From Candidatus Sulfobium sp. (GTDB lineage Bacteria; Nitrospirota; Thermodesulfovibrionia; Thermodesulfovibrionales; UBA6898): DNA of 64,000 nt. Shown here one piece after another: positions 43,661 to 56,235 of this stretch; the stretch's first letter is position 1, and each line of letters begins with the position of its first letter. The stretch covers positions 1 to 64,000 of the forward strand of contig JARRRI010000015.1 in assembly GCA_037380845.1 (NCBI GenBank), in the 5' to 3' direction. The notes below the pieces were generated by a model. It was given only the letters and a program-made list of their open reading frames with translations, was not told where the DNA came from and did no database searches. Made by a program: the position numbers and the translations under genes.

Positions 43661-44914
43661 ATGGAGAAAGGGATTTCATTCAGCAGAATGGGCGTGATCG
43701 TTCTTATCGTGCTCATGCAGTTGGTGTTCGCCGGGATTTTTGCAGCGTCTGCCCGCGCAAGTGATGTGGATGTTTTAATCGACAAGCTGGTCGAAAAAGG
43801 GGTCCTCACCCGCAGCGATGCGGAGGCGATCCTCAAGGAGACGAAGGAGGCGGAGAGAAAGGAACAGCCGAAGGCAGAACAGATGGCAAAGGCGGAAAAG
43901 GCAGCAGCGCCCTCATGGACAGACAACATCAAGTTCTTCGGCGACTTCAGGCTACGTAACCAGTGGGAGCACCGCGAAGGCAAAGATGCTCGTGACAGGG
44001 GACGGTTCAGGTGGAGATTCGGGGCCGAAGCAAAGGTAGTCGACAACCTGCAGGTCGGCTTCCGGCTTGCCAGCGGCGGCGACGATCCGCGTTCGACAAA
44101 CCAGACTTTTGAAGACATCTTTTCGAGCAAGAGCATGAGGATTGACCGGGCCTACGCCAGGTATGAGCCCGTCGGATGGCTTACTCTCACGGGCGGCAAA
44201 TTCGCAAATCCGATATGGACGACGGCAGACCTGCTCTGGGACGACGACATCAACCCCGAGGGTCTCGCTGCTCATGTGTATATGAAAGGCGAACCGGTCG
44301 ACGTTTTCTTCAACACGGGACTGTTTGTCATGAATCAGTTTAAAAACAGTTCCGAGCCCCTCATGTTCCCTCTTCAGCTCGGCGTAAACTGGAAGGTTGC
44401 AGAAAATACTGACCTGAAGTTAGCGGGCTCCTACTATTACTTCAGCGGCCTCCAGGGAGAGACTTTGGATTTTTCAGCTAAGACCAACACGCTTGTCCCG
44501 GGAGACGGTCTGAAATACAAGTATAACGCCTTCACGGCCGAAACCGAATTGGGTTTGAGGGATGTGATATTTCCTTATGTGGGACTGTTCGGAACTTACG
44601 TCTACAATCCCGATCCCTCCGACAATAACCAGGGCTTCCTCGCAGGTGTGAAGTTCGGCGACAAAAAGGTTTCGAAGGGAGGCGACTGGCAGGTGAAATA
44701 TATGTACCGTTATCTCGAAACAGACGCCTGGCCGGATGTCTTCCCGGATTCCGATTTCTTCGGGGGCGCAACAAACGTTAAAGGTCATGAGGCGGTGGCC
44801 TCCTACGGCCTGATGAAACATGTCACACTCGGTCTCGATTATTATCACAGCAGCCAAATTCATGGTACGACCGACGAGGACCTCTTCCAGACGGACCTCG
44901 TTTTCAAGTTCTAA
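43661..44914 (+). CDS. Putative porin (probably phosphate-starvation induced)
   Basis: Signal peptide, LIDKLVEKGVLT, GDFRLR, STNQT, WDDDINPEG, C-terminal Phe. Confidence 0.85.
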   Translation: MEKGISFSRMGVIVLIVLMQLVFAGIFAASARASDVDVLIDKLVEKGVLTRSDAEAILKETKEAERKEQPKAEQMAKAEKAAAPSWTDNIKFFGDFRLRNQWEHREGKDARDRGRFRWRFGAEAKVVDNLQVGFRLASGGDDPRSTNQTFEDIFSSKSMRIDRAYARYEPVGWLTLTGGKFANPIWTTADLLWDDDINPEGLAAHVYMKGEPVDVFFNTGLFVMNQFKNSSEPLMFPLQLGVNWKVAENTDLKLAGSYYYFSGLQGETLDFSAKTNTLVPGDGLKYKYNAFTAETELGLRDVIFPYVGLFGTYVYNPDPSDNNQGFLAGVKFGDKKVSKGGDWQVKYMYRYLETDAWPDVFPDSDFFGGATNVKGHEAVASYGLMKHVTLGLDYYHSSQIHGTTDEDLFQTDLVFKF

Positions 44915-44933
44915 AGGGCTAACCCTCCACTCA

Positions 44934-44978
44934 GACTTTGCGGGCCGGAAAGACCCGGCCCGTAAAGTCACTTTTTTT
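44934..44978 (+). terminator. Intrinsic terminator
   Basis: GACTTTGCGGGCCGG...CCGGCCCGTAAAGTC followed by T7. Confidence 0.85.
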
Positions 44979-45111
44979 AACCATAAGTTCAACTTCCGGA
45001 AACTTTCACTATCAGATCTGATACCCTCATCCCCGCTGAAGTACTTAATGGACAAGTTTTCTCAAAAGCAAATATTAGCCTGAAGCACGGTTACGGAATA
45101 TGCCGACAAAT

Positions 45112-45167
45112 TTTAATTCAAATGTAATATTCCTCTAACAGGCCCGTAATAAACCCGGTGTTATAGT
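45112..45167 (+). promoter_or_regulatory. Pho-box-like array (4 repeats) plus extended -10
   Basis: TTTAAT/TGTAAT/TCTAAC/CGTAAT at 45112/23/34/45; TGnTATAGT. Confidence 0.75.
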
Positions 45168-45310
45168 GATATAAACAGCTATGAAACCGTCTTTTTAATT
45201 TCGGTCAATTTGACTTTATCAGAGGAGGTGAGGCCACGGGATAAGAATATCGTTGGTATGTCGACTGCGGGGACGCGTGCCCTGCAACACATTTATTGAA
45301 AGGAGAAAAC

Positions 45311-46321
45311 ATGAAGAAAGTTATCACACTGATGGCAGTTTTACTTACAGCGCTTTACTTTTCGCCGGCAGGAGCCGCCGACATGCTCAACGGAGCGGGC
45401 GCTACATTCCCCTATCCGGTTTATTCGGCGTGGGCGTATGCTTACAACAAGGACACCGGGGTGAAGCTGAACTACCAGTCAATAGGATCGGGCGGCGGCA
45501 TAAGGCAGATCACTGAGAGGACGGTGGACTTCGGCGCGTCCGATGCACCCCTCACCCCCGCACAGCTGAAGAAGGACAGGCTCTATCAGTTTCCCGCGGT
45601 CATGGGTGGCGTTGTCCCGGTAGTCAATATCCCGGGGGTAAAGGCGGGGAAGATGAAACTTGATTCAGCCGCCGTCTGCAAGATATACCTTGGTGAATTG
45701 AAATACTGGGACACCCCGGAAATCTCGCGATTAAACCCGGGAATGAAGTTGCCGCATCATGAAATAACCGTTGTCCACAGGTCTGACGGCTCGGGAACAA
45801 CCGCCATATTCACCCACTATCTCAGCGGGGCATGCCCTGCCTGGAAAGAGAAAGTGGGCGCCGGAACTTCCGTGAGCTGGCCCACCGGCATCGGAGGCAA
45901 AGGCAACGAAGGTGTGGCGAACTATACGAGAAGGGCGCCGGATTCCATCGGTTATGTAGAGTTTGCATATGCAGTACAAAACAAACTTGCGTATGTCCTT
46001 CTGAAAAACCCGGCAGGCAATTTCGTTGCCCCCAGCTTCGCCACCTTCGAAAACGCAGCCGCCACGGCGAATTTCGATCCCGGACAGAATTTTCATCTCT
46101 GGCTTGTCAACGCACCGGGAAAAGACGCATGGCCCATTGCAGGGGCAACCTTCATCCTCCTTGCGAAAGAGAAAAAGGATTCCAACCTCAGGACGGTAAA
46201 GTTCTTTGACTGGGCATTCAAACAGGGCGATGCGAAGGCAAAGGAACTGATTTATGTCCCCCTCCCGGAATCTTTAAAGGACAAGATCAGGACTTACTGG
46301 AAAACAAACGGCATAATATAA
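45311..46321 (+). CDS. pstS: Phosphate ABC transporter substrate-binding protein
   Basis: GAGATFP, YQSIGSGGG, DFGASD, RSDGSGTT, GGKGNEGV. Confidence 0.96.
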   Translation: MKKVITLMAVLLTALYFSPAGAADMLNGAGATFPYPVYSAWAYAYNKDTGVKLNYQSIGSGGGIRQITERTVDFGASDAPLTPAQLKKDRLYQFPAVMGGVVPVVNIPGVKAGKMKLDSAAVCKIYLGELKYWDTPEISRLNPGMKLPHHEITVVHRSDGSGTTAIFTHYLSGACPAWKEKVGAGTSVSWPTGIGGKGNEGVANYTRRAPDSIGYVEFAYAVQNKLAYVLLKNPAGNFVAPSFATFENAAATANFDPGQNFHLWLVNAPGKDAWPIAGATFILLAKEKKDSNLRTVKFFDWAFKQGDAKAKELIYVPLPESLKDKIRTYWKTNGII

Positions 46322-47104: not shown

Positions 47105-48088
47105 TCAGACCTTTCTCAGAAGGAAGGCGTGTGCAGAAAGTCCGGCGCCGAAGGCGACCATGATGCAGAAATTCCCCTTTTCCACCCCGCTTGCCAGAAT
47201 ATTGTCGAACACGAACCAGATTATCTTTTCTCCGCCGGTATGAAGCGCCCAGTGCCTTATATTTTCCACGGTGAGCGATCTCGGTTGAAGAAGGTCTCTT
47301 ACTACCTGTGCAACCGCTTTCTTTACCAGGTGAGGGAGTTTTGTAGAAAGCTGGTTATATAGCTGGCCGTTCCTGTGGACATACCGTATGGCGTCCCGGT
47401 CCTCGGGGACATAGCAACTTGAGGATGCGATGAGCTCAAGACCTTCCGGACGGTCCCAGAGCACCGCAGCCGCAGCCCCGTCGCCAAAGAGAGCATTCGA
47501 GACAAGCAGGCTCAGATCATCCCCCATCTGAAATGTGGCGGTACATATCTCTACAGAAACGCTCACTACTGCTTTGCCCCCCGCTCCCCTTGCAAGCGCC
47601 CCTGCTACTTCCAGGTTGGGGATCGCGCCACCGCAACCGCTGCCCACGAGATCATACACCCTGATATTGCGGGCGAACCCCAGTTTTTCGATAAGGTACG
47701 TCGATATGCCGGGACAGATGTAGCCTGTGCAGGTATTGACCACGAGTCCTGAAATGTCTTCGGTCGACAGCCCCGCCCTGCTCAGGGCCTTCTGTACGGC
47801 CTCGGCCGAGAGATCGACGGCCCAGCGCGCGAAACGCCAGATACGGGCGTCGGGGTCCTCGCTCAGGAAATCCTGCGGGTCTTCGATGGCGAAGTACCTT
47901 TTACGGATGGCGGGGTGCGTCAGCAGGCTGTGCATCAGCGAGCGACTCCTGGAACTCAGCCTGTCCGAATACCGGTCCAGGAGATGCTTCTCCACCTCTG
48001 CCTGGTCGGCGGAAAAAGATGGCGTCGCGACCGCGACGGATGCAATATAAACTTTTCCCGCCGTTTTTTCTTCTTCATCCATGATCAT
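47105..48088 (-). pseudogene. Type III polyketide synthase with in-frame deletion removing the catalytic Asn region
   Basis: GSGCGG (Cys), LFGDGAAA, HTGG (His) joined directly to WFV; no GNMSS motif; 327 aa. Confidence 0.7.
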
Positions 48089-49509
48089 ACCTCCATGCCT
48101 AATAACCTGAGTCCCCGCCTTATGGCACTGGTATGTCTCCAGAGAGGGGATCGCACCCCCATCATATATGCCAGCCGATGAATAGCCGGGAGAAGTCGCA
48201 TACCCAGTGACTCAGAATTCATAAAATTCATGTGTTCGTTCATTGAATTCTTTACCTGCTTCAGCATCCAGCCATAATCAACGGTGGGGGAGATGTAAAA
48301 AACGGGTTCAAGCATCTCGGCGGGTGTGAGCGAGAGAAGCCCCTGTTTTCTCGCTATTAAGTCGAGTTCCGTCCCGGGATAGGTTCGTATGCCCATCCCG
48401 AAAAAAGCCGCGTCCTTCGGACGGATAACAGTTTCGGCAAACCGGAGGGTTTCCCTTACCGTCCCCCTGGTCTCATTCGGCCCCCCCATCATGAATATCC
48501 AGACACAGGGGAGATCGTGGCGCCCGACCACCTGCGCCGCTTTATACACATGTTCGGCTGAGAACCCCTTCCCCAGTCCCTCAAGGACGGCGTCAGAAGC
48601 ACTTTCCACGGTAATGCCGATACCCGAAAAACCCGCTCTTTCCATTGACGAGATAAGGTCGTCATCGATAAAGAGGGGGTTCAATTCGAGGCTCTGCAGA
48701 GACGCCTGTGAGCGGGTCCGTATCAGTTCGTGACAAATAGCGAGCGCATGACTATAGGGAGCGTTGAAAACGTTGTCCACAAGCTCAATATTGCGGAATC
48801 CCTTCGATACCAGTCTGCCTATGTTGGCGGCAACCTCTTCAGGGTCGCCCAGGCGGTAACTGCCTCCCTCAATCTTCCGGTACGTACAGTACACGCACGA
48901 AAACTGACATCCAAGTTTTGTCTGAACGGGCCCTGTCGATAGTCTCCTGAGATATGCCGTGACATCGATGTATCGATGAAAATCGGGTAAATCACAGGAG
49001 CAACGGTCCTGCCGTGATCTAAAGTGATTGGAATAAAACGTCTCCTCCTCCAACCACGCTACCCCCTCAAGCGTCTTCGGACATCCATCAGCCAGTTCCC
49101 CGAGAAACTGAGGAAATACGGTCTCCCCGTCACCCAGCACGGCCCATTCGGCGCCGGTAAAACGGAGCAATTCCTCCGGCATTACGGAGACGGCGGCGCC
49201 GCCCAACACCAGAGGGGCAGAGGTTAAATCCCGTGCGGCGCCGATGAGAGGGGGAAGTTCCCTTATGAAGAATTCCGGGTAACTGCAGTCGTTATTATCG
49301 ATGTTCCTTATTGAAAGCCCGACAACGTCCGGCTTCTCCTTTTCAAGTTCGCGCCTGACCGCAACCACGGGGTCGTCCTCAAACATCACGTCCACAAGCC
49401 GGGCCCTGTGTCCGGCCCTCGCCGCGGCTTCCGCCACCATGCATGCCCCAAGGGGAATAACCGGCATAGGGAATTGATTGCGGTTGGTGCTTATAATGAG
49501 AACGTTCAT
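48085..49509 (-). CDS. B12-binding radical SAM protein
   Basis: PVIPLG, GLSIRNIDN, CQFSCVYC, VDNVFN; ATGA-coupled to the PKS. Confidence 0.9.
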   Translation of the reverse strand: MNVLIISTNRNQFPMPVIPLGACMVAEAAARAGHRARLVDVMFEDDPVVAVRRELEKEKPDVVGLSIRNIDNNDCSYPEFFIRELPPLIGAARDLTSAPLVLGGAAVSVMPEELLRFTGAEWAVLGDGETVFPQFLGELADGCPKTLEGVAWLEEETFYSNHFRSRQDRCSCDLPDFHRYIDVTAYLRRLSTGPVQTKLGCQFSCVYCTYRKIEGGSYRLGDPEEVAANIGRLVSKGFRNIELVDNVFNAPYSHALAICHELIRTRSQASLQSLELNPLFIDDDLISSMERAGFSGIGITVESASDAVLEGLGKGFSAEHVYKAAQVVGRHDLPCVWIFMMGGPNETRGTVRETLRFAETVIRPKDAAFFGMGIRTYPGTELDLIARKQGLLSLTPAEMLEPVFYISPTVDYGWMLKQVKNSMNEHMNFMNSESLGMRLLPAIHRLAYMMGVRSPLWRHTSAIRRGLRLLGMEV

Positions 49510-49832: not shown

Positions 49833-50240
49833 ATGAGCAGGTCGGTGCAAGAAAAGTCTTACAGATTAATAGTGCCCTTGCTTGGCTTGATGTTGGTGCT
49901 TACTGCCTGCGCAAGTCAACAGCCGCTGGTAACAATCGGACCGGCCAAAGGCGAGACGAAGATAGAGGTCAAGGCCAGCAATTTCAAGTTCCAGCCCAAC
50001 AACATCAAGGCCTATAAAGGCGGCGTGCTGGTGGTCCGGATCGAAAACATCTCGGATACGGTGCATAACTTTACGATAAACAATCCTGAAGGCCGGGCGC
50101 TGCATAGTGTGCCTCTCCCCCCCAGGAAAACTACAGCGGTCAAGGTTGACCTCTCCGAGCCGGGCACATACGAATTCTATTGCGACAAGCCTTTTCATGC
50201 CGCCTTCGGTATGAAGGGCAGGATTGAGGTCGTTCAATAG
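49833..50240 (+). CDS. Cupredoxin (type-1 Cu) lipoprotein
   Basis: Lipobox LTAC; HNF...YCDKPFHAAFGM (His/Cys/His/Met). Confidence 0.85.
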   Translation: MSRSVQEKSYRLIVPLLGLMLVLTACASQQPLVTIGPAKGETKIEVKASNFKFQPNNIKAYKGGVLVVRIENISDTVHNFTINNPEGRALHSVPLPPRKTTAVKVDLSEPGTYEFYCDKPFHAAFGMKGRIEVVQ

Positions 50241-50337
50241 CTGCAGGCTTATTTTTACAGCAAACTTGTCTTTGATTCGGGGGGATGACCGACTGTCATT
50301 AGATGGATCCTGTCCTCACATTGCCCAAGGGGGGACC

Positions 50338-51918
50338 ATGAAAAAAATGCCGGCTTTTCAGTACCGTATATGGCTCATGGTGTTGCTTACCCTCGCCGCC
50401 TCGCGGGCGCTGGCGCTTGAAAATTCACCGCAAGTCGAGAAAGGCAAAGAGATCTTTGAAAAGAAGTGTTCGATGTGTCATACCATCGGTGGAGGAAAAA
50501 AAGTCGGCCCTGACCTTCAGGGAGTCACGAAGCGGAGGGAGCGGGAGTGGCTTGTGGCCTGGATTTCCGATCCCGGCAAGATGATCAGGAGCGGTGACGA
50601 GACTGCCACAGAACTCATAAAGGGTTACGGGAATCTCCGCATGCCGGCACTCGGCCTTTCTCTTGAGGAGATATCCGCAGTGATCAGCTACCTTGACGCC
50701 AAAGAGGTCCATCGACTCGGCCCTCCCGAGGCGCAGATCATGAAAGAGACCGGAACACCCGAGGTCTATTTTCTCTCCGAGACTTATCTTCAGGCATACC
50801 AGGATGAGCGGGGGAAAAGGTATGTTCCGGTTTATGAGCATGTCTTGATGGACCTCAGGAACAGCAACAGAAAACTCGGCTTCCATGCATCGGGATGGAT
50901 AGATTACGACCTGAAGACACTCAGGACGACGAGGCGGGAGACGGACGAGCTCACTTACGCTTTCTTGAGATATGCGCCTTTTGCCGACAACCGCCTCACT
51001 TTCAATCTCGGCAGGCATCTGGTCTTCGAAGGTGTTGCATCGGAGCAGGTCGACGGACTGTCTTCGCGATGGGAGATCACGGCTAACACAGGTTTTTCGG
51101 TCTTCGGCGGAGTTCCTGTGGAGACCGAGTTCGACGGCAGGACGGGGGACCTGATTTACGGCGGACGGGTATTTCAGAGGGTTACTCGGAAGCTGGAGGC
51201 CGGGGCCTCTTTCCTGAGAGAAACCGACGATAACGGTCAATACCGGGAAGAGGCAGGCATCGACATCTGGCTGCTCCCGATGAAGAAGCTGGAATTTCAG
51301 GGCCATTCTTTCGTGAACCTGGATACGGGCGGCTGGATGGAGCATTCGTATGCCCTCCGGTACTTTCTGTCCGGTGAACTGACGGTAACGGGCCTCTTCC
51401 TCCATAGCAGTTATGATGACGCTTTTTCGGCGAGGACGCTTAATGTGTTTTCTCCGGAGTTTCTGGGGAAAGACGAGGAACTCACAAAGACAGCGGGCCA
51501 CTTCGAATATCGCTGGAGCAGGGACCTGACCGCCGTCGCGGACATTGCGGCATATTCTTACAAGGAGGCCGGCAGCGCCTTGTATTATGGCGGAGGTGCC
51601 ACGGCTACCGTCTACGGGATATCGTCGGGTATCGAACTCCACCGCATGCAGGGAAACTCGGAGAGGCTGAGGTACACCGAGTTTCGCATGTACGCAAAGA
51701 GCGGGCTCCGGAAGATGGCAATCTCGGTCGATGCCATCGACCTCCATTATGACAAGGCCTTTTCGGGTTTGAGCGACGCCTATTCCGTCGACGGTACGAT
51801 TTCTTATCCGGTGACCGGGAAGCTGAAAGCCGGACTTTCTGTCGAGTATAGCAAGAATCCGGATTTCACCGGCGACACCACTGTGCTTTTCAGGCTGGCC
51901 TATAACCTCAGGAGATGA
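50338..51918 (+). CDS. Monoheme cytochrome c fused to predicted outer-membrane beta-barrel
   Basis: Signal peptide; GKEIFEKKCSMCH...GPDL...MP...ISYL; then ~370 aa of alternating aromatic beta-strands ending VLFRLAYNL. Confidence 0.75.
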   Translation: MKKMPAFQYRIWLMVLLTLAASRALALENSPQVEKGKEIFEKKCSMCHTIGGGKKVGPDLQGVTKRREREWLVAWISDPGKMIRSGDETATELIKGYGNLRMPALGLSLEEISAVISYLDAKEVHRLGPPEAQIMKETGTPEVYFLSETYLQAYQDERGKRYVPVYEHVLMDLRNSNRKLGFHASGWIDYDLKTLRTTRRETDELTYAFLRYAPFADNRLTFNLGRHLVFEGVASEQVDGLSSRWEITANTGFSVFGGVPVETEFDGRTGDLIYGGRVFQRVTRKLEAGASFLRETDDNGQYREEAGIDIWLLPMKKLEFQGHSFVNLDTGGWMEHSYALRYFLSGELTVTGLFLHSSYDDAFSARTLNVFSPEFLGKDEELTKTAGHFEYRWSRDLTAVADIAAYSYKEAGSALYYGGGATATVYGISSGIELHRMQGNSERLRYTEFRMYAKSGLRKMAISVDAIDLHYDKAFSGLSDAYSVDGTISYPVTGKLKAGLSVEYSKNPDFTGDTTVLFRLAYNLRR

Positions 51919-52391
51919 TGATGAACAGACTGCTTATTGTCTCAATGCTGGTATCCTGTCTGGTGCTTCCAGGACTCTCGTTTCCACGGAGTCTTGACGC
52001 CGCCGAAGTAAAAATTCCGGAGACTCATCCGATCGAGCTGACCGCAAGACCGCGCTGCACCGAGTGCCACACAGATGAAACGGGCGTGGCTCTTAAACCC
52101 ATCAAGGTTTTCAGTCACAGCAGCGACTGGATCACTGTGCACCGGTTCTACGCCTCCCAGACCTTTCACCTGTGCAACGCCTGCCATAAAGAAGCCTTCT
52201 GTACGGACTGCCATGCATACAAGAACGAGTTAAAGCCCAGTAGCAGATATTCGGGCTCACCGGAGCGATGGCTCCCTCACAGGGGTGACTACCTTTTCCA
52301 GCACAGGATCGACGGCAGAATCGACCCAACGAGTTGTTTCCGCTGCCATGGCAGACAGAACAACGCACTGTGCAGGAGATGCCACCGATGA
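51915..52391 (+). CDS. Pentaheme c-type cytochrome
   Basis: CTECH, CNACH, CTDCH, CFRCH, CRRCH; signal peptide; ATGA overlap. Confidence 0.9.
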   Translation: MMMNRLLIVSMLVSCLVLPGLSFPRSLDAAEVKIPETHPIELTARPRCTECHTDETGVALKPIKVFSHSSDWITVHRFYASQTFHLCNACHKEAFCTDCHAYKNELKPSSRYSGSPERWLPHRGDYLFQHRIDGRIDPTSCFRCHGRQNNALCRRCHR

Positions 52392-53092
52392 GGCTGGAAT
52401 TCGCTCTTCTCATTCTTTTGATGCTCACCGGCTGCGGCAGCGGATCGGACGCCGGAAGGGTCTTTGTCTCCTCCTCCGGACACCCCGCCGACTGGGTCAA
52501 TCCCCTGTTCATCGGGCGAGATGACTTCCACGGCACCAGGATCAGGAATCTGAGAGATGGTCCGGAGGACGGTGTCCTGTTTGTGCGCCACTGTTCCGCC
52601 TGTCACGGTGCAAATGCAGAAGGCAAGATCGGCCCCAGCATCCGTGGTGACACCATAGACCTGATCAATACCGCTATCGGGTCCTTCCCGATCATGAGAG
52701 GCCATGCCGTCCTCAGTCAGGAGGAACGGCAGTCCATAGCAGATTATCTTTCGTCGCCCGGAGCAAATCTTCCGGCAGTGGAGTTTGTGTTCGACACATC
52801 ACTCTGCATGGAGTGTCACGGGACAGATCTCGATGGTGGCATCGCCGAGGTCAGCTGTTTTGCGTGTCATAACGGCCCGGACGGAAGCGTCGGGCACCCG
52901 GCCGGCTGGTTGTCGCGGATTGACGACCCTGCTCATTTTCATGGGAGGTATGGAAAGCGCTTTGTCGTCTCCTGTACAAACTGCCATGGTTTTGATCTGA
53001 GAGGGAGAATAGGTCCACCCTGTTCGAGTTGTCATGACGGCACGACCGCACCGGTTCTGGAACCGTTTTCATTAAACGATGCTGCAACCTGA
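52388..53092 (+). CDS. Pentaheme cytochrome c lipoprotein
   Basis: Lipobox LTGC; CSACH, CMECH, CFACH, CTNCH, CSSCH; HPADW/HPAGW repeats; ATGA overlap. Confidence 0.9.
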   Translation: MRLEFALLILLMLTGCGSGSDAGRVFVSSSGHPADWVNPLFIGRDDFHGTRIRNLRDGPEDGVLFVRHCSACHGANAEGKIGPSIRGDTIDLINTAIGSFPIMRGHAVLSQEERQSIADYLSSPGANLPAVEFVFDTSLCMECHGTDLDGGIAEVSCFACHNGPDGSVGHPAGWLSRIDDPAHFHGRYGKRFVVSCTNCHGFDLRGRIGPPCSSCHDGTTAPVLEPFSLNDAAT

Positions 53093-53183: not shown

Positions 53184-53984
53184 ATGAAAAGATTAATAGT
53201 TGTATTTCTATCAACATTTTTGTGCATGGTCGGTGGTCCGGCTTTGTCTTCAGCGGCCCAGACCTTTGATGTATCAATGGGGAATTATTTCTTCTCGCCG
53301 TCAGACCTCACGATAAACGTGGGGGACACAGTGCGATGGACTAATCCCACCGGCACTCTCCATACCACGACGAGCGGGCAAGGCTGCAGCAGCAGCACCA
53401 GCGGCGCGGTCTGGGACTCCGGAACCATGTCTAACGGCGACAGTTTTTCCGTCACCTTCGACCAGCCCGGAACGAATCCTTACCACTGCACGTTCCATTG
53501 CGGCCTCGGAATGACGGGAACGATTACCGTGATCGCGGCTTCAACGACCATTCCTCTTCCCCAAACCGCGCAGACCTTCACTTATTCCGCGGTGGCTTTG
53601 CCTTCCCTCAGCACATCGCCGGCCGAGGCACAGCCTATCGGTATCGGTGATGTTGCAACGGGCGGCGCCAATCTGGCCATAAGCGTCGCCCTCGACCAGT
53701 TTGAGGGACCTGTCGATATCTATTTCCTGCTCTATAACCAGTCAATCGATCCGGTCAACATCTACCAGTTAACGTCTTCCGGCCAGTTGCAGACGCTTGC
53801 GGCGGGGCTTGCGCCCTGGATACCGTCTTCTCCGGGCCCGATCAATCAAACCCTGTTTGGCACCATACCCCTTTCAAGCCTTCCCCCGGGAACATATCTA
53901 TTGGGAGTCGCGGTAATGCCGGCCGGCGACCAGAGCCTCGCCAAATTCTATCTCTGGGTTACGGACTTCACGGTGGTCCAGTAA
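53184..53984 (+). CDS. Plastocyanin/amicyanin-like protein with extra C-terminal domain
   Basis: FSPSDLTINVGDTVRW, HTTT, YHCTFHCGLGMTG; signal peptide. Confidence 0.85.
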   Translation: MKRLIVVFLSTFLCMVGGPALSSAAQTFDVSMGNYFFSPSDLTINVGDTVRWTNPTGTLHTTTSGQGCSSSTSGAVWDSGTMSNGDSFSVTFDQPGTNPYHCTFHCGLGMTGTITVIAASTTIPLPQTAQTFTYSAVALPSLSTSPAEAQPIGIGDVATGGANLAISVALDQFEGPVDIYFLLYNQSIDPVNIYQLTSSGQLQTLAAGLAPWIPSSPGPINQTLFGTIPLSSLPPGTYLLGVAVMPAGDQSLAKFYLWVTDFTVVQ

Positions 53985-55468: not shown

Positions 55469-55518
55469 TCGCCCAAAGTCTGTTGCGGCGGAGTGGGCGC
55501 AAATGTTATATCTTAATC

Positions 55519-56235
55519 ATGATGAGTAAAAAGATCCTCGTCGTCGACGATGAGGCTGACATTGTAGAACTCTGCTCTTACAACCTCCGGAAGGAGGGGT
55601 ATGACGTAGCATCTGCACCGGACGGCGAAGCGGCCCTTGGAAAAATCAGGGAAGATAATTTCGACCTGGTCCTCCTAGACTTAATGCTCCCCGGCCTGCA
55701 GGGCGTAGAACTCTGCAGGATCATCAGAAACGATCCGGCGACCGCTTCTCTGCCGATCATAATGCTTACCGCAAAAACCGAGGAACTCGACAAGGTCCTC
55801 GGCCTTGAGATGGGAGCGGACGACTACGTCACCAAACCATTCAGTCCCAGGGAACTCCTGGCCCGCGTGAGGGCCGTCCTGAGAAGATCGGGGGCAAAAG
55901 CGGAGAGGGCGGCGCCGAAAGAAAAAGAAACGGTAATAAGGCTTGGTGCTCTTGTCATCGATCTCTCCGCTTACACCGTAATAAAAGACGGCAAACCGTT
56001 GGACCTCAGTTCTACCGAGTTCCGCCTCCTGTCACATCTGGTCGAAAACAAAGGTAAGGTATACAACCGTGAGCAGCTTCTCAATACGGTATGGAAGGAC
56101 GGGGGCTATGTCGAGCCCAGGACGGTTGACGTCCATATCAGGCGGCTGCGCACGCAGATCGAAGATGACCCGGCAAATCCTCTTTACATAAAAACAAAAA
56201 GAGGAATCGGATATTATGCCAATGCGGATGTTTAA
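55519..56235 (+). CDS. phoB: OmpR-family response regulator, PhoB/PhoP-like
   Basis: LLDLMLPG, IIMLTAK, GADDYVTKPFSPREL, wHTH RTVDVHIRRLR; Pho boxes and pstS nearby. Confidence 0.8.
   Translation: MMSKKILVVDDEADIVELCSYNLRKEGYDVASAPDGEAALGKIREDNFDLVLLDLMLPGLQGVELCRIIRNDPATASLPIIMLTAKTEELDKVLGLEMGADDYVTKPFSPRELLARVRAVLRRSGAKAERAAPKEKETVIRLGALVIDLSAYTVIKDGKPLDLSSTEFRLLSHLVENKGKVYNREQLLNTVWKDGGYVEPRTVDVHIRRLRTQIEDDPANPLYIKTKRGIGYYANADV

Follow-up and report, generated by a model that had tools for sequence, protein, structure and literature searches.

A gene at positions 50338-51918 (+ strand) of a 64,000-nucleotide stretch from Candidatus Sulfobium sp. (the whole stretch is called the window below) encodes a single polypeptide that joins a signal peptide and a class I cytochrome c domain to a predicted outer-membrane beta-barrel. 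We consider it somewhat better than an even chance that this gene is the porin of an electron conduit resembling the porin-cytochrome conduit (Pcc) and Mtr systems, and that this porin has gained a tethered, periplasmic monohaem relay. In that case the conduit is of a known kind, and what is new is the captive class I cytochrome on the porin, rather than a second kind of Cyc2, the protein to which the original prediction had likened its architecture. That prediction overlooked the gene context, namely the pairing of the barrel with a gene for a pentahaem cytochrome. Because this pairing is strict, a conduit of the Pcc/Mtr type appears to be a better functional analogue than Cyc2.

The list of open reading frames (ORFs) and the translation give a single open frame of 526 amino acids (aa) with no internal stop. 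Together with Pfam and the structural model, they agree with what had been read from the letters, that is, a signal peptide, a cytochrome, a linker and a strand-rich region following each other without interruption. The parts of the gene are:

50327..50334, + strand: Shine-Dalgarno-like sequence AAGGGGGG, ending 3 nt before the ATG at 50338 (sequence inspection)
50338..50415, + strand: signal peptide, residues 1-26, ending ...SRALA and followed by LE (translation and inspection; helix at residues 6-28 in the AlphaFold2 model)
50425..50706, + strand: class I cytochrome c domain, residues ~30-123 (Pfam PF00034; helical in the model)
50707..50757, + strand: inter-domain linker, residues 124-140, ~17 aa (variable alignment columns; low model confidence)
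50758..51918, + strand: predicted 22-strand outer-membrane beta-barrel, residues 141-526, and stop codon (DSSP strands of the model)

A longer frame with a TTG start at 50224 is probably not in use, and a scan for promoters and terminators gave signals no more than in shuffled sequence.

The cytochrome domain is full-size, at ~95 aa, as had been claimed: Pfam Cytochrom_C (PF00034) matches residues 33-120 with 46.7 bits, the gathering cut-off being 21.3, and the closest match in the PDB is 2l4d_A, described as SCO1/SenC family protein/cytochrome c (E 9e-19). Its haem site, C44-S-M-C-H48 (nt 50467-50481), is followed by G57-P-D-L and R-M102-P, and the CxxCH, GPDL and R-M102-P motifs are all conserved across the 15 fused sequences aligned. 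The conservation of the latter two in 15 of 15 suggests His/Met ligation of the haem, with M102 as the distal ligand.

An AlphaFold2 model was built from a 35-sequence alignment (mean predicted local distance difference test score, pLDDT, 80.9; predicted template modelling score, pTM, 0.62). In this model the strand-rich region becomes a barrel: residues 142-525 contain 22 DSSP strands, most of them at pLDDT 85-96, and linker residues 124-137 fall below pLDDT 50. Residues 130-526 have no match in Pfam (searched to E 1) or NCBIfam. The beta-signal-like end of the original prediction holds only approximately: the final strand ends ...LFRLAY, as such a signal might, but it is followed by NLRR and the C-terminal residue is not aromatic.

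The barrel gene is part of a cluster of redox genes on the + strand, which is opened by a cupredoxin gene. The other members of this operon are:

49833..50240, + strand: cupredoxin, probable lipoprotein (lipobox LTAC); Pfam Cupredoxin_1 E 7e-14, Copper-bind E 8e-10
51915..52391, + strand: pentahaem c-type cytochrome, 158 aa, five CXXCH, Sec signal peptide (ORF list)
52379..53092, + strand: lipoprotein cytochrome (LTGC) with one class I domain (CSACH) and four further CXXCH; Cytochrome_CBB3 E 9e-11, Cytochrom_c3_2 E 8e-4
53184..53984, + strand: secreted plastocyanin-like cupredoxin with a ~150 aa C-terminal extension; Copper-bind E 2e-11, TIGR02656 E 1e-12

The ATG of the pentahaem gene, preceded by AGGAG, overlaps the TGA of the barrel gene (ATGA), and the lipoprotein cytochrome starts either at ATG 52379 or at ATG 52388, the latter overlapping the pentahaem stop. 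By inspection, both cupredoxins have their type 1 copper ligands intact (H...C-x4-H-x4-M in the first).

The pairing of barrel and pentahaem cytochrome is strict, both in synteny and in co-occurrence, across the sampled loci and genomes. A search with a 12-sequence alignment gave six related loci (L001-L006), all in Nitrospirota metagenome-assembled genomes (MAGs) assigned to Thermodesulfovibrionales, Candidatus Sulfobium and 'Nitrospira'. Five of these are long enough to show the gene order, and all five have barrel, pentahaem, lipoprotein cytochrome and cupredoxin in succession; one of them is L004, where the barrel is unfused. Both the lipoprotein cytochrome and, 3' of the cytochromes, the plastocyanin-like cupredoxin are conserved in L001-L005, and the first cupredoxin (49833..50240) has no homologue beside the barrel in L001-L006. 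Over a wider sample of 401 Nitrospirota genomes, the barrel profile matches 59 and the pentahaem profile 62. Barrel matches occur in 46 of 64 genomes of one family of another class and, weakly, in 1 of the 14 others of the window's own family. At E <=1e-30, barrel and pentahaem matches each occur in 55 genomes, and the genomes are the same for both (tables compared by eye). At the 29 best non-self Nitrospirota loci, a pentahaem homologue (41-74% identity) lies directly downstream every time, none of the barrel ORFs contains CXXCH, and the lipoprotein cytochrome is seen in 17 of these 29 short loci.

The same arrangement extends to a distant clade of the barrel family, for which we examined the 41 of 80 metagenome loci that have at least 1200 nt downstream. 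A five-haem ORF follows the barrel in all 41 (pentahaem profile E 1e-41 to 1e-54), and next to it a further ORF with 2-11 CXXCH in 38. The window's genome itself has a distant paralogous cluster in the same gene order (L008:1-3673, - strand, contig C64), in which a barrel of 417 aa (family profile E 5.5e-16) precedes a 260-aa cytochrome with nine CXXCH and a lipoprotein cytochrome with at least nine CXXCH that runs off the contig end. For the pentahaem protein, no Pfam or NCBIfam model scores above threshold, its profile finds in the PDB only a weak NrfH match (E 0.006), and in the ESM Atlas it falls in generic 'cytochrome c family / c7-like' clusters only. As a separate observation, the cupredoxin-like protein at the end of the L004 cluster (L004:4258-5628, Candidatus Sulfobium) is 456 aa long and has an N-terminal domain with four CXXCH fused on.

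A profile of 20 unfused homologues, searched against 1.84 billion cluster representatives, placed 828 representatives in the barrel family at E <=1e-3 and 206 at E <=1e-30. A typical member has 410-450 aa and consists of a signal peptide and the barrel; CXXCH is present in just 3 of 146 newly listed representatives. Some members carry an additional domain at one terminus: OmpA at the C-terminus (P0085), SPOR (P0163, P0178, P0070), LysM at the N-terminus (P0091), C-terminal cytochromes (P0066, P0070) or an N-terminal class I cytochrome (P0055). Since relatives carry peptidoglycan-binding domains at either end, these sequences indicate that both barrel termini face the periplasm. As far as sequence searches go, the family is covered by neither Pfam nor NCBIfam; 23 diverse members gave no NCBIfam match above cut-off, and all ten family clusters looked up, some of them from Geobacteraceae MAGs, are named 'hypothetical protein'. 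One lead from ESM Atlas clusters, the PEP-CTERM-associated outer membrane protein family TIGR03016 (score 0.97, no common Pfam), was dropped because neither the target nor the 23 diverse members matched TIGR03016 or BBP2_2.

In P0070 (943 aa), the barrel is extended at the C-terminus by class I cytochrome c, SPOR and four-haem c7-like domains; in P0066 (724 aa), it is extended by a four-haem c7-like end. The order class I then tetrahaem in P0070 resembles that of the window's lipoprotein cytochrome, the similarity being weak (E 6e-4), and its SPOR domain hints that this C-terminal cytochrome module faces the periplasm.

In structural comparisons by VIA-align, the target's top matches (Z 17-19) are barrels of TonB-dependent transporters (22 strands) and ushers (24 strands), and a SusC-like barrel is also matched. 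The top matches include BtuB (Z 18.1, 337 residues aligned, root-mean-square deviation (rmsd) 4.2) and the usher FimD (24 strands; Z 18.8, rmsd 6.0); Cir and FyuA are also among the matches, as are MtrB (Z 15.6) and, at rank 23, the copper transporter OprC (Z 14.7). OprP/OprO-type porins are not among the 50 matches listed for the target, an absence that carries no weight; the strand count does. Foldseek against the PDB found generic barrels only (ushers, OccD/K porins), and since its TM-scores are at most 0.49, the structural likeness is one of barrel size and points to no specific family. The same applies to the TonB-dependent transporters, the best barrel matches, which likewise have an N-terminal globular domain before a 22-strand barrel. 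The loops of the target are much shorter than theirs (386 aa for 22 strands), and it has no Plug or TonB_dep_Rec match in Pfam or NCBIfam (a TonB box was not looked for); the likeness in the model is limited to barrel size.

A further comparison is with Pcc systems. Shi et al. 2014 (PMC4245776) give 18-22 predicted membrane strands for Pcc porins and 5-14 haems for the periplasmic cytochromes of these systems. The target has 22 strands in its model, and the adjacent gene encodes a multihaem protein of 158 aa with five CXXCH and a signal peptide. The gene arrangement, too, is of the kind seen in porin-cytochrome conduits such as the Geobacter-type clusters OmaB-OmbB-OmcB and ExtHIJKL, the target locus having 22 strands, five haems and a five-haem lipoprotein; Geobacter ExtI is described as having 21 transmembrane domains and as encoded with the periplasmic pentahaem ExtK (PMC6148476). 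The target locus differs from these systems in the class I cytochrome c fused to the porin and in the two cupredoxins added to the operon. With MtrAB, MtoAB and PioAB it shares the concept of a barrel that sheathes a multihaem cytochrome, with a small class I monohaem cytochrome as the proposed periplasmic relay, and MtrB is, as mentioned, among its structural matches (Z 15.6). MtrB and PioB, however, have 26 strands and a 10-haem partner, whereas the target has 22 strands and a five-haem partner, and Pfam MtrB_PioB gave no match on target residues 130-526 at E <=1. MtoD, a free monohaem cytochrome, has been proposed to relay electrons from MtoA (PMC5566968); it is a separate protein, while the relay of the target would be covalently tethered. 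Finally, GM18_3465 of Geobacter sp. M18, a porin-like 10-haem outer-membrane cytochrome with ~21 strands predicted in the same polypeptide (PMC4245776), resembles the target in combining haem sites and a barrel in one polypeptide outside the Cyc2 family. Its haem motifs are described as lying in long barrel loops, in contrast to the discrete globular cytochrome that precedes the barrel in the target.

With these comparisons in mind, one may propose how the system works. The 22-strand barrel and the downstream pentahaem cytochrome would form the membrane-crossing core and work with the lipoprotein pentahaem cytochrome; by analogy with MtrAB, the pentahaem protein would be inserted in the barrel or docked at it, as MtrA is in MtrB. 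The class I cytochrome would stay in the periplasm on its flexible tether of ~17 residues and, captive there, would relay one electron at a time between the multihaem cytochrome at the barrel and soluble carriers, for which the two cupredoxins of the operon are the candidates. The same role has been suggested for the free monohaem MtoD of Mto systems. The lipoprotein cytochrome and the tethered domain would pass electrons on at the periplasmic side, at the surface, or both. The periplasm is the most likely location of the class I domain. The suggestion in the original prediction that a domain of this size may hang there is supported only indirectly, by the flexible, variable linker and by the LysM, SPOR and OmpA domains that relatives carry at the same termini.

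The direction of electron flow is the weakest part of this proposal. The genome encodes DsrA, three proteins of the haem-copper oxidase family and a cytochrome bd oxidase, a set with which electrons could flow either way. High-potential chains typically use His/Met class I cytochromes and cupredoxins. Since the carriers of the operon resemble those of such chains, we lean weakly to electron uptake from an extracellular donor such as Fe(II).

Several points weigh against this proposal. The physical complex between barrel and pentahaem cytochrome, central to it, is one that we infer by analogy, and the direction of electron flow likewise follows from an analogy of carrier types. The model does not place the cytochrome domain reliably (linker pLDDT <50, pTM 0.62), and a plug-like placement inside the 22-strand barrel, as in TonB-dependent transporters, would be sterically possible. 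Neither the barrel nor the pentahaem protein has an NCBIfam match, and any homology of the barrel to the named Pcc/Ext porins OmbB, ExtI and ExtE is hypothetical. The lipoprotein cytochrome has a lipobox (LTGC) and five CXXCH, and could sit on either face of the outer membrane. In addition, some members of the barrel family carry peptidoglycan-binding domains as their only additions; not every member of the family need be linked to a cytochrome.

A broader claim, which we regard as possible and hold only tentatively, is that the barrel and its 160-aa pentahaem partner constitute a widespread, unrecognised conduit across the outer membrane (a 'half-Mtr'), built here into a full pathway for oxidising an extracellular donor that is independent of the Cyc2 of the same genome. 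Such a conduit would range over Nitrospirota (46 of the 64 genomes of one family), Geobacteraceae-like organisms and other lineages. In the dsr-bearing, Thermodesulfovibrionales-like host of the window, the pathway would add to the conduit a porin-tethered class I cytochrome and two recruited cupredoxins.

The N-terminal cytochrome is a derived addition to the barrel. The unfused homologues are ~415 aa long, and their mature N-terminus (n=20) aligns with target residue ~141. A FastTree phylogeny was built from the 149 barrels whose rows cover 370 or more profile positions, with shorter rows excluded. Of its N-terminally fused proteins, 15 group in a single clade (local support 98) that lies within unfused forms (95), in line with the claim that this fusion arose independently of that in Cyc2. 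The fused protein P0055 sits apart, beside an unfused protein (97), and therefore the tree needs two changes. Since the cytochrome domain of P0055 (575 aa; 42% identity over the whole length) is collinear with that of the target, one gain with a loss is as plausible as two gains. The C-terminal cytochrome fusions fall in a different clade from the N-terminal ones. The homologues thus include fused and unfused forms; a split-off neighbouring gene for the cytochrome domain was found at none of 115 loci, where only the fused proteins of L001, L002 and L003 matched. At the sampled loci, then, the barrel gained this domain by addition and not by merger with a neighbouring gene. The nearest relatives of the domain outside the barrel family are P0041, P0043 and P0044 (45-55% identity), proteins of ~300 aa in which the matching domain is N-terminal and is accompanied by a second CXXCH and a C-terminal hydrophobic segment.

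The junction of cytochrome and barrel is not an assembly chimera, because independent contigs bridge it and homologues share it. A separate salt-marsh study of 2022 includes three runs whose contigs extend over 50556-50880, 50630-50815 and 50635-50785, and thus across the interval 50700-50770 in which a chimera had been feared, with zero mismatch, indel or joint. One marsh-metagenome contig, possibly the source of this DNA, spans the entire stretch. Fourteen further full-length fused homologues (522-549 aa, 50-75% identity) have the same domain order and the same junction.

The target is not a Cyc2, and its barrel is, judging from sequence and model, unrelated to that of Cyc2. Keffer et al. 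2021 (PMC8406198) describe Cyc2 by a single CXXCH with AxPxFAR[Q/K][T/Y] just upstream and PxL just downstream, and by a 16-strand, OprO/OprP-like porin. Of these features the target shares only the succession of signal peptide, single CXXCH (C44-H48) and barrel. AxPxFAR[Q/K][T/Y] is missing upstream of its haem site, where the sequence reads ...SPQVEKGKEIFEKK-CSMCH, and so is PxL at +4: in CSMCH-TIGGGKKVG-PDL, the PDL lies 10 residues past the His, a spacing that we take to be that of the mitochondrial-type class I fold.

The genome of the window also provides a positive control. P0201 (L007:6875-8233, - strand, G000 contig C20; 453 aa) reads AVPSFARQT-GLS-CFECH-TVY-PEL after its signal peptide and belongs to a very large family, with >4300 matches among 8000 candidates scored. 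The same modelling pipeline gave it 16 strands and a haem segment of ~48 residues between the signal peptide and the first strand, with OprP (2o4v_A) as closest structure (Z 21.2, 323 residues aligned, rmsd 3.7). These features agree with published Cyc2; P0201 owes the label Cyc2-like to the motif, the 16 strands and the OprP match, and no database names it so. The closest named homologue of P0201 is a hypothetical protein of a Candidatus Sulfobium MAG (80% identity), and its divergent neighbour is a 512-aa ORF with several CXXCH (L007:8505-10043). Between target (P0001) and P0201, the best BLASTP hit has E 0.40 over 11 residues, and hhalign gives a probability of 0.7% for the barrel family against the P0201 family and of 0.3% for the full-length alignment. 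Together with 22 as opposed to 16 strands in the predicted models, this upholds the view that the porin family differs from that of Cyc2. The haem domain of Cyc2 is, as stated in the original prediction, much the smaller: ~48 aa in P0201 and ~95 aa in the target.

It is nevertheless conceivable, though we think it unlikely, that the target functions as Cyc2 does, with the monohaem domain plugging or capping the barrel and reacting with a soluble extracellular substrate such as Fe(II), so that the downstream cytochromes would be periplasmic acceptors only. The order of signal peptide, one-haem domain and barrel is indeed the same as in the Cyc2 of A. ferrooxidans, Cyc2PV-1 of Mariprofundus and Cyt572 of Leptospirillum, the N-terminus is predicted to be periplasmic in both cases, and both are present in lineages with extracellular redox genes. 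The 95-aa domain could fit a 22-strand lumen, as the plug of TonB-dependent transporters does. Cyc2 is paired with rusticyanin, and the cupredoxins of the operon recall this pairing. Yet Cyc2 has 16 strands and a haem peptide of ~45 aa, against 22 strands and a class I cytochrome of ~95 aa on a linker here, and in the target's barrel family most members lack haem, and a pentahaem gene accompanies the barrel wherever sampled. Because unfused orthologues keep the barrel and the downstream genes without the haem domain, the core function of the barrel is independent of that domain. The lack of the Cyc2 motifs, and of any sequence or profile similarity to P0201, also speaks against this idea, as do the LysM and SPOR domains at the same N-terminal position in relatives, which imply a reach to the peptidoglycan.

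A role of the cluster in the periplasmic handling of copper or another metal, for instance Cu(I) oxidation or detoxification, is still less probable. The barrel would then be a metal channel, and the cytochromes and cupredoxins its redox partners. Such a role would account for the two cupredoxin genes of the operon. It is also suggested by a 36-aa Met/His-rich insert in the cytochrome domain of the fused relative P0055 (residues ~60-100, ...HDMEGMPMGHEMPHDMGMMQMGHEM...), which resembles Cu(I)-binding Met-rich motifs, and by a Gly/Met/His-rich secreted ORF just upstream of the unfused barrel in L004 (869-1522). The match to OprC (Z 14.7) might be cited as well, but at rank 23 it reflects a generic 22-strand resemblance. 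The first cupredoxin is not part of the conserved neighbourhood in L001-L006, the universally conserved partners are haem proteins, and the window ORFs scanned include no member of the multicopper oxidase, Cus or Cop families.

We give the same low probability to the idea that the barrel serves simply for diffusion or as a structural protein of the outer membrane, with the cytochrome attached only so that a periplasmic carrier stays close to this membrane and with no electrons crossing through the barrel. Family members with OmpA, SPOR or LysM as their sole extras do look like structural outer-membrane proteins, and the barrel matches no named family. Such a porin, however, would leave unaccounted for the strict adjacency of the pentahaem gene and its genome-level co-occurrence across distant clades, the repeated fusion of cytochromes at either terminus, and the paralogous barrel-multihaem-lipoprotein cluster in the same genome.

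That two genes were joined through a chimeric contig or an overlooked stop is extremely improbable, since the one observation in its favour, an in-frame stop right after the junction in the relative L003, comes from coverage of only ~1.1 and may be an error, and contigs of an independent study cross the junction without differences at a point common to 14 other full-length fused homologues. The L003 gene itself (L003:2-1480), with its stop in the first barrel strand, is either such an error or a decayed copy. Decay may also explain L005:7947-9982, where the barrel ORF lacks the first ~250 residues and the lipoprotein cytochrome is split over two ORFs, and L014, which has a TGA within the barrel match.

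We came across no fusion of a class I cytochrome with a 22-strand or Pcc-type porin in the literature searched. Cyc2 serves as the marker gene for 'fused cytochrome-porin' oxidation of iron. In the target, the same overall architecture arose on an unrelated, larger barrel that is normally paired with a separate pentahaem cytochrome, and a search by architecture only (one haem site and a barrel) would for this reason give it the wrong label. In the sampled Nitrospirota genomes and metagenome loci, the barrel-pentahaem pair is frequent and strictly conserved, and it lies outside Pfam and NCBIfam. If it is a compact conduit across the outer membrane, the known range of extracellular electron exchange would grow to include organisms to which it is not usually ascribed. 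Moreover, this natural fusion sets a testable constraint: as part of the porin, the relay cytochrome would have to act at the periplasmic mouth of the barrel.

Divergent from the redox operon, on the - strand (47105-49509), are two genes joined by a stop/start overlap; one encodes a B12-binding radical SAM protein of 473 aa, the other a type III polyketide synthase-like protein of 326 aa. On the + strand, 43661-46321 encodes a 417-aa porin of the Porin_5 family and, after it, a PstS-like phosphate-binding protein; an OmpR/PhoB-type response regulator is encoded at 55483-56235, downstream of the operon.

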